Position numbers and translations under genes: made by a program. 64,000 nucleotides of DNA from Pyrinomonadaceae bacterium (GTDB lineage: Bacteria; Acidobacteriota; Blastocatellia; Pyrinomonadales; Pyrinomonadaceae): contig JAHCHG010000002.1 of NCBI GenBank assembly GCA_026129865.1, positions 244,096-308,095 on the forward strand, written 5' to 3'. Below the pieces are notes generated by a model. The model saw only the letters and a list, made by a program, of their open reading frames with translations. It made no database searches and had not been told where the DNA came from. The number at the start of each line of letters is the position of its first letter. Positions within the stretch are counted from its first letter, which is position 1. This document shows, piece by piece, positions 1,006-4,428 of this stretch.

Positions 1006-1107
1006 ACGATTCTTTTTTGACGTTAATTGGGCAAATCGAGAACGAACCGAAAGCGCGGCTTATTAACTAAAAAGGCAAAATAAGCAATAATGGTTCCGGG
1101 ATTAATA

Positions 1108-1491
1108 ATGAAGAACATTCCGCGAGTAAAAGTAACCGAAGATGCGAAAAAGGTCATCAATGAACTTCGAACGAAATTTGGCGACCTGATGTTTCATCAA
1201 TCGGGCGGCTGCTGCGACGGCAGTTCGCCGATGTGTTTTGAAGCGGGCGAATTTCTTGTCGGATCGTCCGATGTTTGGCTCGGGCAGATCGACGGGTGCG
1301 ATTTTTGGATGGCGAAAGATCAGTTTGAATTTTTCAAGCATACGGAACTGACGATCGACATAACCGAAGGTCGCGGCGCTTCGTTTTCGCTCGAGATCCC
1401 GATGGGAGTCCGGTTCATTACAAAATCGAGAATTTTTACTCACGAAGAAACACAGAATCTGGTCGAAACGCGACCGAGCGGCATGATATAA
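1108..1491 (+). CDS. DUF779 domain-containing protein
   Basis: The FHQSGGCCDGSSPMCF motif and a size of about 127 aa fit DUF779. An alternative start lies at 1090. Confidence 0.75.
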   Translation: MKNIPRVKVTEDAKKVINELRTKFGDLMFHQSGGCCDGSSPMCFEAGEFLVGSSDVWLGQIDGCDFWMAKDQFEFFKHTELTIDITEGRGASFSLEIPMGVRFITKSRIFTHEETQNLVETRPSGMI

Positions 1492-1497
1492 AAAGAT

Positions 1498-1854
1498 ATG
1501 AGCAAAAAGATAACCGTTTACGAAAAACCGACCTGAACGACCTGCCGAAATCTGGCTAAGTTGTTTCGTGAAAACAACATCGATTTTGACAGCGTCAATT
1601 ATTTTAACCAGCCGATCAGCGAAACAAAGCTTCGCGACCTATTGAAAAAAGCTGGTCTTAACGCAGCGGACGTGCTTCGCAAAGGCGATCAAGTTTATAA
1701 AGAACTAAACCTCGGCGACGAAACCGATCAGGATAAATTGGTCAAACTGATCGTCGAAAATCCCAATCTTCTCCAACGTCCGATCGTTGAGGTCGGCGAC
1801 AAAGCGGTCTTGGCTCGTCCGATCGAAAAAGCTTTGGATTTGATTGACCGCTAA
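1498..1854 (+). CDS. ArsC/Spx/YffB-family thioredoxin-fold protein with an in-frame TGA at 1534..1536 (candidate selenocysteine, UxxC; otherwise a nonsense pseudogene)
   Basis: ATG 1498 is in frame with track ORF 1561..1854 and only one TGA interrupts it. The joined product is MSKKITVYEKPT-[TGA]-TTCRNLAKLFRENNIDF...LLQRPIVEVGDKAVLARP. This is the strand/CxxC/helix layout of the family, with TGA replacing the first Cys. Confidence 0.55.
1560..1578 (+). promoter_or_regulatory. Candidate SECIS-like hairpin downstream of the TGA
   Basis: GTTGTTT-CGTGA-AAACAAC forms a 7-bp stem with a 5-nt GU-containing loop, starting 24 nt after the TGA. The stem is weak and AT-rich and has not been evaluated energetically. 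Confidence 0.3.
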
Positions 1855-1858
1855 CGGA

Positions 1859-1879
1859 GCGCAGGCAGCCTGCCTGCGC
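1859..1879. repeat. GC-rich palindrome (REP-like or terminator-like)
   Basis: GCGCAGGCAG-C-CTGCCTGCGC lies directly after the ArsC-like stop. A related palindrome GCCGGCAG-G-CTGCCGGC sits at 1944..1960. Confidence 0.45.
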
Positions 1880-1969: not shown

Positions 1970-2434
1970 ATGAATTCCATAGAACATCTTCGCGGGCTTT
2001 ATCTTTACAACGACTGGGCGAACCGTCGTACGATCACCGCTTTGAAATCTGCTCCCAGTGAAAAGGCTTTGAAAATCTTGTCGCATATTTTGCTGACTGA
2101 AAAAGAATATTATGCGCGTCTTTTTGGCAAAAATTCCACGGGTTTTGATTTCTGGCAGGAATTGTCGCTCGACGAATGCAGCAAACAGGCGATGGAAAAT
2201 GCCGAGAACTACGAGGGTTTGTTAAAACGGTTCGACGACGAAGGTTTGGGGCAGATCGCGAATTATAAAACCAGTGACGGCAAACCGGTCGTAAACAGTT
2301 TTCGCGAAGTCCTAACGCATGTATTATTTCATTCGATGAATCATCGCGGTCAGGTAAACGCAGCCATTCGCGAAGACGGTTTCGCGCCGCCGTCGACCGA
2401 TTACATAATCTATGCTCGCGAGGTTAAGTTTTAA
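1970..2434 (+). CDS. DinB-family (DinB_2) metal-dependent protein
   Basis: MNSIEHLRGLYLYNDWANRRT at the N-terminus and the C-terminal LFHSMNHRGQV motif. The start was moved to the internal ATG (aa 43 of the track ORF). Confidence 0.75.
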   Translation: MNSIEHLRGLYLYNDWANRRTITALKSAPSEKALKILSHILLTEKEYYARLFGKNSTGFDFWQELSLDECSKQAMENAENYEGLLKRFDDEGLGQIANYKTSDGKPVVNSFREVLTHVLFHSMNHRGQVNAAIREDGFAPPSTDYIIYAREVKF

Positions 2435-2510: not shown

Positions 2511-3308
2511 ATGCCGCAGACGGTTCCTAACATTTTCATGGACGTAGATTCCGAACAACTAGTCTTTGATTTCGAGAACGTGCAGCCGCATATCGAGCGC
2601 GAGTCGCGCGATCAGATAAAACTGACGCTCGGCGAATTTGCCGGTCCGCTCGATCTGCTTCTTTATCTGATCCGGCAGGAAAAGGCGAACATTTTCGATA
2701 TTCCGATCGCGAAGATCACGGACGAATATCTGCGATATATTCGTCTTTTGAAATCGATGGACATAACGCTTGCGACCGATTTTCTCGTCATGGCAGCGAC
2801 CTTGATCGAGATAAAATCGAAAATGCTTCTGCCGCGCGATCCGGTTTTTGAAGGCGACGAAGAAGCTGAGGATCCGCGTCAGGAACTTGTCGATCAGCTG
2901 CTGGAACATGAAAAATTCAAACGCGCTTCCGAGATGCTGTATGAACGTTCGACCATTGAACAAGCGACTTTTTCGCGCGGGCTGATCGAATCGGACGACA
3001 ATAATCTCGAAATAAATGCCACGGTTTTCGATATTTTAAAAGCGTTTCAGCAGATAATGGAACGCCGCAAGGAAGAAATTCAAATGGAGATCGCACGCGA
3101 GGAAATGTCGCTGGCGGAAATGCTGAAAAACATTAGATCGCGAATTTTCACTTCGGGAAAAATTACTCTTTTGGAGATATTCGAAGAGCTGAAAACGAAA
3201 AATGAATTTGTCCTGGCGTTCATCGCCGTGCTCGAGATCGTTCGAACGGAAAGCGTCCGCGTAATTCAAGAGCAGGTTTTTGGAGAAATAACGCTGACGC
3301 GAACCTAA
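2511..3308 (+). CDS. scpA: Segregation and condensation protein A
   Basis: The FAGPLDLLLYLIRQEKANIFDIPIAKITDEYL kleisin N-terminal motif, followed immediately by scpB. Confidence 0.85.
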   Translation: MPQTVPNIFMDVDSEQLVFDFENVQPHIERESRDQIKLTLGEFAGPLDLLLYLIRQEKANIFDIPIAKITDEYLRYIRLLKSMDITLATDFLVMAATLIEIKSKMLLPRDPVFEGDEEAEDPRQELVDQLLEHEKFKRASEMLYERSTIEQATFSRGLIESDDNNLEINATVFDILKAFQQIMERRKEEIQMEIAREEMSLAEMLKNIRSRIFTSGKITLLEIFEELKTKNEFVLAFIAVLEIVRTESVRVIQEQVFGEITLTRT

Positions 3309-3330
3309 CGTTTCGCGCCTGCCGCAATTA

Positions 3331-3888
3331 ATGGAAGAGGTAAACAAAGAGAAAACAAGTCGAACCGAAGCTGAGCTGATGTCGATCTGCGAAGCGCTGA
3401 TATTTGTTTCCGACGAACCGGTGCCGCCGAAAGTACTCGGCGATGTATTGGGTGAACCGAAACAAAAGATCGAAAAGGCGCTGGACGATCTGCGCTTGAG
3501 CTATGAGGCGAGAGACGGCGGACTTCGCCTTCGCGAGATCGGCGGCGGTTGGCAGATCGCGACGCGGACGGAGCTGCACGAAGAAGTTCGGGAGTTTTTG
3601 AAAACCCGCCCGAGCGCAAAGCTTTCGCTTGCCTCGCTTGAAACTCTCGCGGTCATCGCCTATCGACAGCCCGTTACCGTGCCTGAAATTCTGGAAATTC
3701 GCGGCGTTCAATCTGCATCGTCGATCAAAACCTTGCTCGATAAACGCCTGATCGTTTCAAAGGGGCGAAAAGACACGGTCGGACGCCCGATGATGTACGG
3801 AACGTCAAAAGATTTTCTGATCCAATTCGGCTTAAAAGACCTTTCCGAACTTCCTTCGATAGAAGATTTCGAAGACCTGATCCAATAA
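3331..3888 (+). CDS. scpB: Segregation and condensation protein B
   Basis: EALIFVSDEPV, LETLAVIAYRQPVTVPEILEIRGV and GRPMMYGTSKDFL are typical ScpB winged-helix motifs. Confidence 0.85.
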   Translation: MEEVNKEKTSRTEAELMSICEALIFVSDEPVPPKVLGDVLGEPKQKIEKALDDLRLSYEARDGGLRLREIGGGWQIATRTELHEEVREFLKTRPSAKLSLASLETLAVIAYRQPVTVPEILEIRGVQSASSIKTLLDKRLIVSKGRKDTVGRPMMYGTSKDFLIQFGLKDLSELPSIEDFEDLIQ

Positions 3889-4428
3889 ATGCATGCTCAC
3901 CGGACCGAAAATGAACTAGTCATTCAGGAAACGCCGGGATGTCTCTGGTTCGTCGGCGGATTTTTCGCGCTCGTCGGTGCTCTTTTCGTTTACGGCGCGC
4001 TCGGCGGATTTTCAAATTGGAGTTCCGTGCCGTTGTGGCAGCTGGCGCTTTGCGTGGTTATTGGTTCAAGCGGTGTCGGAATCGGTTTTTGGTCGATCCA
4101 TAAAGCGCCGATCTCAAAATTGATCATCGACCGCATCGACGACCGGATAATTTTAACGCGGCGCGGACTTTTTTCGAGGTCTAAAACGGTTTTCAGTTTT
4201 GTGGAGGTCGAGTATTTCTGCCTGGTCGAAGACGTTGACGACGAAGGAAATACGATCTGGGATTTTGGAATGCAGCTGCTAGACGGCGAAATTATAAAGA
4301 TCACTTCCCTTGCGACTCATTCCGAACAGTATCATCGAAATTTCGTTTTTGCCGCAAATGAATTTGCGCGAAAACATCTGCCGTCAGCGACCGCGCTTCA
4401 CGAACTCGAAAACGAATACGAAAATTAA
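3889..4428 (+). CDS. Hypothetical membrane protein (2 TM helices plus a soluble C-terminal domain)
   Basis: The ATG abuts the scpB stop (TAAATG). Two hydrophobic helices (LWFVGGFFALVGALFVYGAL, LALCVVIGSSGVGIGFW). I recognise no family. Confidence 0.5.
   Translation: MHAHRTENELVIQETPGCLWFVGGFFALVGALFVYGALGGFSNWSSVPLWQLALCVVIGSSGVGIGFWSIHKAPISKLIIDRIDDRIILTRRGLFSRSKTVFSFVEVEYFCLVEDVDDEGNTIWDFGMQLLDGEIIKITSLATHSEQYHRNFVFAANEFARKHLPSATALHELENEYEN

Follow-up and report, generated by a model that had tools for sequence, protein, structure and literature searches.

The window analyzed here is a 64,000-nucleotide stretch of the genome of a Pyrinomonadaceae bacterium (Acidobacteriota; GenBank assembly GCA_026129865.1, contig JAHCHG010000002.1, positions 244,096 to 308,095 of the forward strand), and the gene under study lies at its positions 1498-1854. 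Comparison with related sequences indicates that this is very probably an intact selenoprotein gene, in which TGA 1534 is the selenocysteine (Sec, U) codon of a small ArsC-type redox enzyme. The TGA occupies the column of the catalytic cysteine, Sec and Cys forms of the gene exist as orthologous pairs, selection on the protein acts on both sides of the TGA, and selection on the RNA acts on a hairpin that follows it. A UxxC selenoprotein had been proposed in an earlier note made from the letters of the window alone, and this proposal was supported by the TGA or Cys found in that column, the covariation of the hairpin and the intact state of the TGA-bearing orthologues.

The TGA codon in the catalytic cysteine column

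Read from ATG 1498 to the TAA at 1852-1854, the frame has a single interruption, TGA 1534-1536, and its translation is MSKKITVYEKPT*TTCRNLAKLF... or, in extended form, MSKKITVYEKPT-[TGA]-TTCRNLAKLFRENN.... The start had been placed at ATG 1498, 6 nt after the stop of a DUF779 gene, and this was confirmed, as DUF779 ends at 1491. Equally correct was the remark that the listed open reading frame (ORF) 1561..1854, of 97 residues, begins at a TTG; TTG 1561 is its start both in the mechanical ORF list and in GenBank. The 97-residue product would be without the first strand and the entire redox motif, and this ORF is an artefact of annotation rather than a gene in its own right. The features of the gene are given below, with SECIS standing for selenocysteine insertion sequence.

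1498..1854, plus strand: predicted ArsC-family selenoprotein, full coding sequence; 118 residues including Sec13, stop codon TAA at 1852-1854 (translation, Pfam, TIGR00014 and PDB matches)
1534..1536, plus strand: UGA codon, predicted Sec13; aligned to the nucleophilic Cys12 of R773 ArsC (TGA-bearing loci; syntenic TGC/TGT orthologues)
1543..1545, plus strand: TGC, Cys16; second redox residue of the U-T-T-C motif, presumed resolving cysteine
1560..1578, plus strand: SECIS-type hairpin; arms 1560-1566 (GUUGUUU) and 1572-1578 (AAACAAC), loop 1567-1571 (CGUGA)
1561..1854, plus strand: deposited short ORF; TTG start, 97 residues, MCW5959437.1, "hypothetical protein KIS76_04695"
1678..1680, plus strand: CGC, Arg61; matches Arg60 of R773 ArsC, Arg in 167 of 169 distinct TGA-type proteins
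1777..1779, plus strand: CGT, Arg94; matches Arg94 of R773 ArsC, Arg in all 169
1816..1818, plus strand: CGT, Arg107; matches Arg107 of R773 ArsC, Arg in 167 of the 169

With U replaced by C, the window protein matched the Pfam ArsC family (PF03960) at 56.3 bits, above the cutoff of 24 (E = 4.1e-15), and it was aligned over residues 4-116 with solved ArsC structures (3RDW at 1.5e-17; the R773 ArsC entries 1I9D and 1JZW at about 5e-14). The assignment to the ArsC/Spx family made in the earlier note therefore held, and the matches to solved ArsC proteins were unambiguous. The best NCBIfam match was TIGR00014 (arsC, glutaredoxin-type), at 97.3 bits and below the curated cutoff of 106.05; two relatives were near misses as well (90.2 and 100.7 bits), and the window protein was not assigned as an equivalog. 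The Spx/MgsR model TIGR01617 gave 67.4 bits, below its curated cutoff of 75.05, and NF041106, the "ArsC family (seleno)protein" model, gave 20.9 bits, below its cutoff of 85 (23.1, 27.9 and 28.6 bits for other representatives, the last two values being those of two other TGA clades).

In the alignment with R773 ArsC, residue 13, encoded by the TGA, faces Cys12, the nucleophile of that enzyme, and arginines occupy all three positions that match Arg60, Arg94 and Arg107. The redox motif reads U13-T-T-C16 in the window protein and C-G-T-S in R773 ArsC; by analogy with CxxC and UxxC chemistry, Cys16 would serve as the resolving cysteine. Judging from the top match to TIGR00014 and the arginine triad, the gene clade has the sequence signature of ArsC proper combined with a UxxC motif.

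A search of 5.8 billion proteins returned 2,572 homologues of the window protein. Among the best 120 of these, about a quarter (30 of 119 in one count) read PTWTTC and the rest PTCTTC. The W-type public proteins include P0002, P0004, P0005, P0007, P0009 and about 25 others, and the DNA behind three such entries is TGA (L001:618, L002:392 and L003:793). Since the DNA shows TGA and a Trp at the catalytic Cys is implausible, the W calls were judged false. They arose because gene callers applied genetic code 4 to short contigs, which conceals selenoproteins systematically in metagenome protein sets.

These calls, which gave many orthologues a W at this position, would fit readthrough of the TGA that needs no dedicated Sec system, either by reassignment (Trp or Gly, codes 4 or 25) or by leaky near-cognate readthrough. 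We consider this very improbable. The W calls are code-4 translations of an underlying TGA, an enzyme with Trp or Gly in place of the catalytic Cys would be inactive, and readthrough leaves the covarying hairpin unexplained. TGA also serves as a normal stop in the window: it terminates 13 of the 51 long ORFs there, and ORFs called with table 11 occupy 82% of the sequence. These figures exclude code reassignment, and a genome-wide reassignment of TGA was rejected for the same reason.

Public genomes and metagenomes were scanned with the DNA pattern GARAARCCNACNTGAACNACNTGY, which ends deliberately before the hairpin, and matches were obtained at no fewer than 119 genome loci and at least 120 metagenome loci. 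The genome matches are species representatives and come mostly from Pyrinomonadaceae, Chloracidobacterium, Blastocatellia and other Acidobacteriota, plus Gemmatimonadota. Among the carriers of the TGA form are closed or near-closed genomes (OZ252034.1, OZ243957.1 and CAVXPU010000005.1). An intact ArsC-like ORF with the TGA in exactly the same column was present at 188 loci or more, in at least 100 species of Acidobacteriota and Gemmatimonadota. About 45 further loci among the matches listed belong to a more distant ArsC-like clade, and a handful are chance matches, of which about nine would be expected, by estimate, if a genome scan were complete. The invariance of Cys16 in the collected loci was imposed by the search pattern and is no independent evidence. 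The TGA-type ORFs have a median length of 118 residues, and 177 of the 178 complete ones extend at least 90 residues beyond U, so the TGA-bearing set shows none of the additional disabling mutations that had been named as the mark of a plain pseudogene.

Some genomes carry two TGA-type copies, and the pairs L039/L046 and L017/L065 each come from one metagenome-assembled genome (MAG). L110 has an intact gene of 115 residues and a second copy whose frame stops after 55 residues; the corresponding figure for L121 is 46 residues. In the few TGA-type copies shortened beyond the hairpin, through a frameshift or a premature stop, the cause may be decay of a paralogue or faulty assembly.

An error of sequencing or assembly, with TGC or TGT as the real codon, would be easy to imagine from the window alone, as TGA is one base from TGC and the record is a MAG. 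Such an error is nevertheless so improbable as to be negligible: hundreds of assemblies, made independently by different projects and with different technologies, agree on this base, and it comes with a specific conserved loop.

The four codons 5′ of the search pattern (codons -8 to -5, n = 179) read I-T-V-Y almost invariantly, with free use of synonymous codons (ATC/ATT/ATA, ACC/ACA/ACG/ACT, GTT/GTC/GTA/GTG and TAC/TAT). By this measure the region 5′ of the TGA is under purifying selection as protein and is read in frame through the TGA. Since the amino acids are kept and the synonymous codons are free, a start at TTG 1561 and a pseudogene are both incompatible with the pattern.

The window and the Cys-type loci share one gene order: (aldehyde dehydrogenase, DUF779), ArsC, DinB, ScpA, ScpB, an ORF of 173-179 residues and RluB. 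Where the flank was long enough, 84 of 130 TGA-type loci have ScpA no more than 3 kb downstream and 54 of 130 have DinB no more than 1.5 kb downstream; DUF779 stands immediately upstream in 45 of the 159 TGA-type loci with room for it and also occurs near Cys-type orthologues. The syntenic Cys-type orthologues carry TGC or TGT at the TGA column. As the gene order is common to both, with scpA and scpB as anchors, the Sec and Cys forms are positional orthologues, and the homologue alignment that had been advised for this gene shows Cys (TGC/TGT) or TGA at precisely this column. The tree of these short proteins is poorly resolved; on it, the Fitch minimum is 14 Sec/Cys switches, compared with 26.7 after shuffling, which suggests, as a rough indication, that many such switches took place at this locus.

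Covariation of the hairpin at 1560-1578

The hairpin GUUGUUU-CGUGA-AAACAAC has a perfect 7-bp stem and a 5-nt loop, and its first base is the 24th after the TGA (a spacing of 23 nt); its place at 1560..1578 and the GU in its loop had been recognized correctly beforehand. Folding of the 67 nt from 1534 to 1600, also suggested at that time, placed the hairpin in the minimum-energy fold (z = -1.6 for the 67 nt). By itself the hairpin exceeds chance only modestly, at -5.2 kcal/mol and z = -2.1, with 8 of 200 shuffles folding equally well. What makes it significant is the comparison with related sequences.

For this comparison, 150 distinct sequences were picked regardless of pairing, leaving out the clade with a shifted hairpin described below, and their alignment is gapless from the TGA to +66. 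The sole structure returned by RNAalifold was a stem of 7 bp between columns 27-33 and 39-45, which correspond to 1560-1566 and 1572-1578 of the window. Pairing was found in 96.3% of the cells, against 41-68% (maximum 67.6%) when the 3′ arm was slid by 1-3 columns. Double changes occurred in five of the seven pairs, and the covariation was 0.389, against 0.234 in shuffled alignments (0 of 500 shuffles as high).

In pair 33-39, the third position of a Phe/Leu codon is matched with that of a Glu codon. The combination TTT-GAA was present in 108 sequences, TTC/CTC-GAG in 38 and the non-pairing TTC-GAA in one, a pattern that does not arise from protein selection because both sites are synonymous. 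On a rough tree built from the flanks only, columns 33 and 39 change at least 15 and 14 times, respectively, and their joint state 15 times, which points to roughly a dozen independent compensatory events at this pair, nearly every change being compensatory.

The Arg codon of the loop is CGT in 134 sequences of this alignment, CGG in 13 and CGC in 1; the comparison Arg codon, seven codons upstream, is CGC in 89, CGA in 25, CGT in 18 and CGG in 13. The second position of the CGUGA loop is a G, in agreement with the bacterial SECIS consensus, which has G at apical-loop position 1 or 2 (PMC13582414). Taken together, these alignments argue that the hairpin is under selection at the RNA level. In answer to a check listed in the earlier note, the hairpin is kept in TGA-bearing orthologues and covaries, synonymous sites included.

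A second stem, ACGA...UCGU enclosing GCC...GGC, had been proposed directly after the TGA. Its letters are present, but it was rejected. The 89% pairing that it reaches is due to column conservation, it does not covary beyond the level of shuffles, each change breaks a pair, and it competes with the supported stem, with which it has column 33 in common. The long lower stem in the 67-nt fold of the window is absent from the consensus structure and was also rejected.

These data bear on the deposited annotation, in which the TGA is a true stop. The gene would then be a nonsense pseudogene or yield just the 97 residues read from TTG 1561, and the hairpin would be coincidental or otherwise used. 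A TTG start is indeed available at 1561, and the hairpin alone is weak. However, a true stop is hard to reconcile with the same TGA in an intact flanking frame at the 188 or more loci in at least 100 species, with purifying selection on the codons upstream and no extra disabling mutations, with a product that has neither the first strand nor the redox motif, and with two synonymous sites that covaried about a dozen independent times; we hold it to be highly unlikely. The nonsense-pseudogene alternative left standing by the earlier note did not survive the recurrent TGA, the upstream selection and the covarying stem. These three lines, together with the Cys orthologues, exclude both a pseudogene and a sequencing error.

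Two other groups of TGA-bearing genes carry a hairpin in another register. In the Gemmatimonadota type (19 distinct sequences; loci including L015, L049, L050, L057, L060, L063, L081, L111 and L115), the window-type hairpin is absent, and GAAGCU-CGUG(A/C)-AGCUUC is found at +13 to +31 after the TGA, 13 nt upstream of the window-type site, with its loop at +20 to +24 and in another codon phase (K-L-V-K-L-L). Its 18 bases are almost invariant (one loop base is A or C) and nearby synonymous sites vary; in such an invariant stem covariation is unmeasurable. The Acidoferrum type (30 distinct sequences, mostly from Candidatus Acidoferrum; loci including L004, L007, L009, L014, L018, L023, L059, L069, L086, L089 and L116) has the TGA at the first UxxC position (FLEKPTUTTCRKARSFLL...), and a conserved 7-bp stem at +17 to +34 with the loop AGUU or GGUC at +24. 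Its best NCBIfam match is Spx/MgsR, below the cutoff.

The loop thus stands at +33 in the window clade, at +20 in the Gemmatimonadota type and at +24 in the separate Spx-like clade, in different codon phases. We tentatively raise the possibility, which we would not rate as the probable one, that there is a large unmodelled UxxC clade of the ArsC-proper type in soil Acidobacteriota (Pyrinomonadaceae, Chloracidobacterium and Blastocatellia) and Gemmatimonadota, with a SECIS loop at +33, +20 or +24 according to lineage, repeated Sec/Cys interchange and "fossil" SECIS elements in Cys forms. If this were true, the clade would offer a compact natural series for the origin, movement and decay of a SECIS element within coding sequence, and Sec use in aerobic soil Acidobacteriota would be much commoner than annotation suggests.

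Decoding of the UGA and comparison with known systems

In the mechanism that we propose, translation would begin at ATG 1498, probably on the DUF779 transcript, and would not terminate at UGA 1534, where the hairpin 1560-1578 would act as a bacterial SECIS element and recruit SelB with Sec-tRNA(Sec). Insertion of Sec would yield an ArsC-family protein of 118 residues with a U13-T-T-C16 center, which has Sec at the place of Cys12, the nucleophile of the glutaredoxin-coupled arsenate reductase, while arginines 61, 94 and 107 are kept. The likely chemistry is an attack of the selenolate on arsenate or a related oxidized substrate, followed by resolution of the adduct by Cys16 into a selenenylsulfide, which would be reduced again by a thioredoxin- or glutaredoxin-type system. 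In this scheme we infer the SelB-dependent decoding, the actual insertion of selenium and the substrate.

Several observations weigh against a selenoprotein at this locus. The three closest Cys-type orthologues, all with TGC (L245:183-250, L247:5036-5100 and L249:559-625), retain all 7 pairs of the stem and have CGUGA or CGGGA as the loop, so the stem-loop alone is no proof of Sec decoding. These forms failed as a negative control and were replaced by more diverged Cys-type genes, three only, in which the hairpin is not formed (loops AAAGA, GAAGA and ACCGA, with 4-6 of the 7 positions pairing). These three genes do indicate a link between hairpin and TGA, as do the loop codons, at which R-E-N stands in 29 of 29 TGA-type but 22 of 89 Cys-type database homologues. 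The Cys forms with a full stem apparently are recent TGA-to-TGC conversions with a residual SECIS element, or are pre-adapted for the reverse conversion; residual SECIS elements in Cys forms have been described for other selenoproteins (PMC13582414).

To these must be added that the hairpin is short and weak, and that when 50 nt of the window sequence are folded, the pairing of ACGAC (1537-1541) with GUUGU (1560-1564) beats the SECIS hairpin, which returns to the minimum-energy fold once more 3′ sequence is included. It could be speculated that the stem is freed when a ribosome pauses at the UGA and thereby covers ACGAC. The spacing of 23 nt between UGA and stem is twice the 11 nt of Escherichia coli fdhF. 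This spacing still lies within the range used by bSECISearch. The window protein scores below the cutoff set for each specific NCBIfam model (arsC, Spx/MgsR and ArsC selenoprotein), every sequence used derives from metagenome assemblies, and the lack of ars operon genes nearby makes the substrate uncertain. Finally, neither the 64-kb window nor 1.48 Mb of related loci, the only sequences covered by this search, yielded a tRNA(Sec), selA, selB or selD.

For the latter search, tRNA and Rfam scans of the whole window returned no tRNA and no Rfam family, and tblastn with E. coli SelA, SelB and SelD gave no match at 1e-3 in the window and the 1.48 Mb of fetched loci. Any Sec machinery would therefore be unlinked to the locus, and it is the comparative signature that points to Sec decoding in this organism. 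Three selenoprotein families with four selenoproteins were reported for Acidobacteria (Zhang 2006, PMC1794560), Occallatibacter riparius is listed among Sec-utilizing genomes, and Sec-type hydrogenases occur in Acidobacteriota. A literature search on the Sec machinery in Pyrinomonadaceae, Blastocatellia or Gemmatimonadota returned nothing specific.

Further cases were sought in the same sequences. A scan of the window and all loci for CxxU or UxxC followed by a downstream hairpin gave 35 non-ArsC matches, none convincing; a recurring "RCCF-TGA" case among the candidates was a low-complexity ORF in the wrong frame. A list of ORF pairs split by one TGA was discarded as noise.

The UGA and its hairpin could also be functional but be read as Cys by a tRNA(Sec)-like tRNA (SelC*/tRNA-ReC) via SelB, giving a CxxC protein. 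tRNA-ReC decodes UGA as Cys when a SECIS element follows (PMC13582414), and unusual tRNA(Sec)-like "allo-tRNAs", possible suppressors, are known from Acidobacteria (PMC5389517). The conservation of the TGA and the covariation of the SECIS element fit such Cys-recoding equally well, making this the sole rival that sequence data do not separate from Sec insertion, and the frequent TGA/TGC interchange (Fitch minimum of 14, on the rough tree) would be easy if both codons meant Cys. We nonetheless consider Cys-recoding improbable. tRNA-ReC is a minority system found beside canonical tRNA(Sec) (PMC13582414), the reported carriers of selC* are anaerobic Firmicutes, Thermodesulfobacteria, Nitrospirae and Proteobacteria, with no Acidobacteria among them (PMC5389517), and it is hard to explain why a costly recoding signal would be kept in more than 100 species just for a Cys when TGC is one mutation away.

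If Sec is the residue inserted, the arginine triad makes arsenate the obvious candidate as substrate; however, no arsR, arsB or acr3 was found near the locus, where the neighbors are DUF779, DinB, ScpA/ScpB and RluB.

An "ArsC-like" selenoprotein with UxxC was described by Zhang et al. in 2006 (PMC1794560). The Global Ocean Sampling (GOS) study listed "ArsC 1" (UxxS) and "Arsenate reductase 2" (cd03032, UxxC), the latter with 42 Sec and 238 Cys sequences (PMC2398784), and a 2022 review lists an "Arsenate reductase-like protein, COG1393, UxxC" (PMC9312934). ArsC-like UxxC selenoproteins have therefore been known since 2006-2008, and the window gene is a further member with no new mechanism. It resembles the published examples in its ArsC domain, in the Sec at the first position of UxxC at the catalytic Cys, in the stem-loop after the UGA and in having Cys homologues that are far more numerous than the Sec forms. 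Deltaproteobacteria and marine metagenomes are the sources of the published examples, whereas the window clade comes from soil Acidobacteriota and Gemmatimonadota. The UxxC group of the GOS study is Spx-like (cd03032), whereas the best match of the window clade is TIGR00014, with the arginine triad; the two groups were compared by their descriptions only.

NF041106 (ArsC_rel_Se_1) is a curated ArsC-related model with Sec and Cys members from the same superfamily. The window protein and representatives of the two other TGA clades fall below its cutoff and are no members, and this shortfall is probably why the NCBI pipeline missed the Sec codon and produced the short annotation.

R773/E. coli ArsC can be aligned over its full length (E = 5e-14), and its nucleophile position and Arg60/94/107 are conserved in the window protein. 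The latter differs in having Sec for Cys and UTTC instead of CGTS, with a second Cys three residues on, which suggests, from the motif, an intramolecular resolving step rather than glutathione; it also differs in lacking an ars operon context, with DUF779, DinB and ScpAB as neighbors. Spx/MgsR (TIGR01617; PDB 1Z3E) has the ArsC fold and a CxxC-type motif in the same position, followed by an Arg. However, the HMMER matches to Spx span residues 5-97 (ending at 97-98), leaving the C-terminal ARP motif (Arg107) outside the alignment, and it is the more distant Acidoferrum-type TGA clade that resembles Spx/MgsR.

The hairpin shares with the SECIS element of E. coli fdhF its nature as a coding-sequence stem-loop 3′ of the UGA, the GU in the apical loop (GGUC in fdhF, CGUGA in the window) and the G at loop position 1 or 2. 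In fdhF, the stem begins 11 nt after the UGA for Sec140 and has a bulged U and a 4-nt loop, GGUC, at +21 to +24. The window hairpin differs by its perfect 7-bp stem and its 5-nt loop, which lies about 12 nt further downstream, and its binding of SelB is putative. The Gemmatimonadota-type relatives have the 11-nt spacing between UGA and stem seen in fdhF.

The result corrects an annotation, since the deposited record shortens the gene to a product without active site. In public protein collections the family is either shortened or given a false Trp at the catalytic position, and as it scores below the selenoprotein-aware model of NCBI, the error is systematic over at least 100 species of abundant soil bacteria. 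Well-supported Sec use is added for Pyrinomonadaceae and relatives, and the locus supplies clean pairs of Sec and Cys orthologues, with and without the hairpin, for a study of SECIS evolution.

Neighbourhood of the gene

The genes and signals around the ArsC-type gene are as follows.

1090..1491, plus strand: DUF779 gene, upstream; Pfam PF05610 at 1.4e-45, stop 6 nt before ATG 1498
1859..1879, plus strand: GC-rich palindrome, terminator-like; 5 nt past the stop codon, 9 pairs of which 7 are G-C, weak T tail
1970..2434, plus strand: DinB-family gene, downstream; Pfam DinB at 2e-12, syntenic context
2511..3888, plus strand: scpA (2511-3308) and scpB (3331-3888); ORFs in the same order as in L245-L248 (Pfam SMC_ScpA and SMC_ScpB)

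DUF779 and the predicted selenoprotein gene probably form one two-gene transcript. A weak promoter-like site is found at 1063-1091, and the palindrome at 1859-1879 is the probable end of the DUF779-arsC transcript. It is one of two related GC-rich palindromes, at 1859-1879 and 1941-1963 (GCGCAGGCAGCCTGCCTGCGC and GTGCCGGCAGGCTGCCGGCGC), which occupy the spacer between the selenoprotein gene and DinB and are both terminator-like. The motif has no further copy in the 64 kb (4 matches on both strands, 0.08 expected).

The mechanical DinB ORF (1844-2434) opens at TTG 1844, still inside the 3′ end of the selenoprotein gene, but homology to DinB is seen only after ATG 1970, which is probably the true start. 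Between scpB and rluB, at 3889-4428 of the window, lies the ORF of 173-179 residues, which occupies the same place in the Cys-type relative L245 (2467-2988); it has no Pfam match and contains predicted membrane-like segments.

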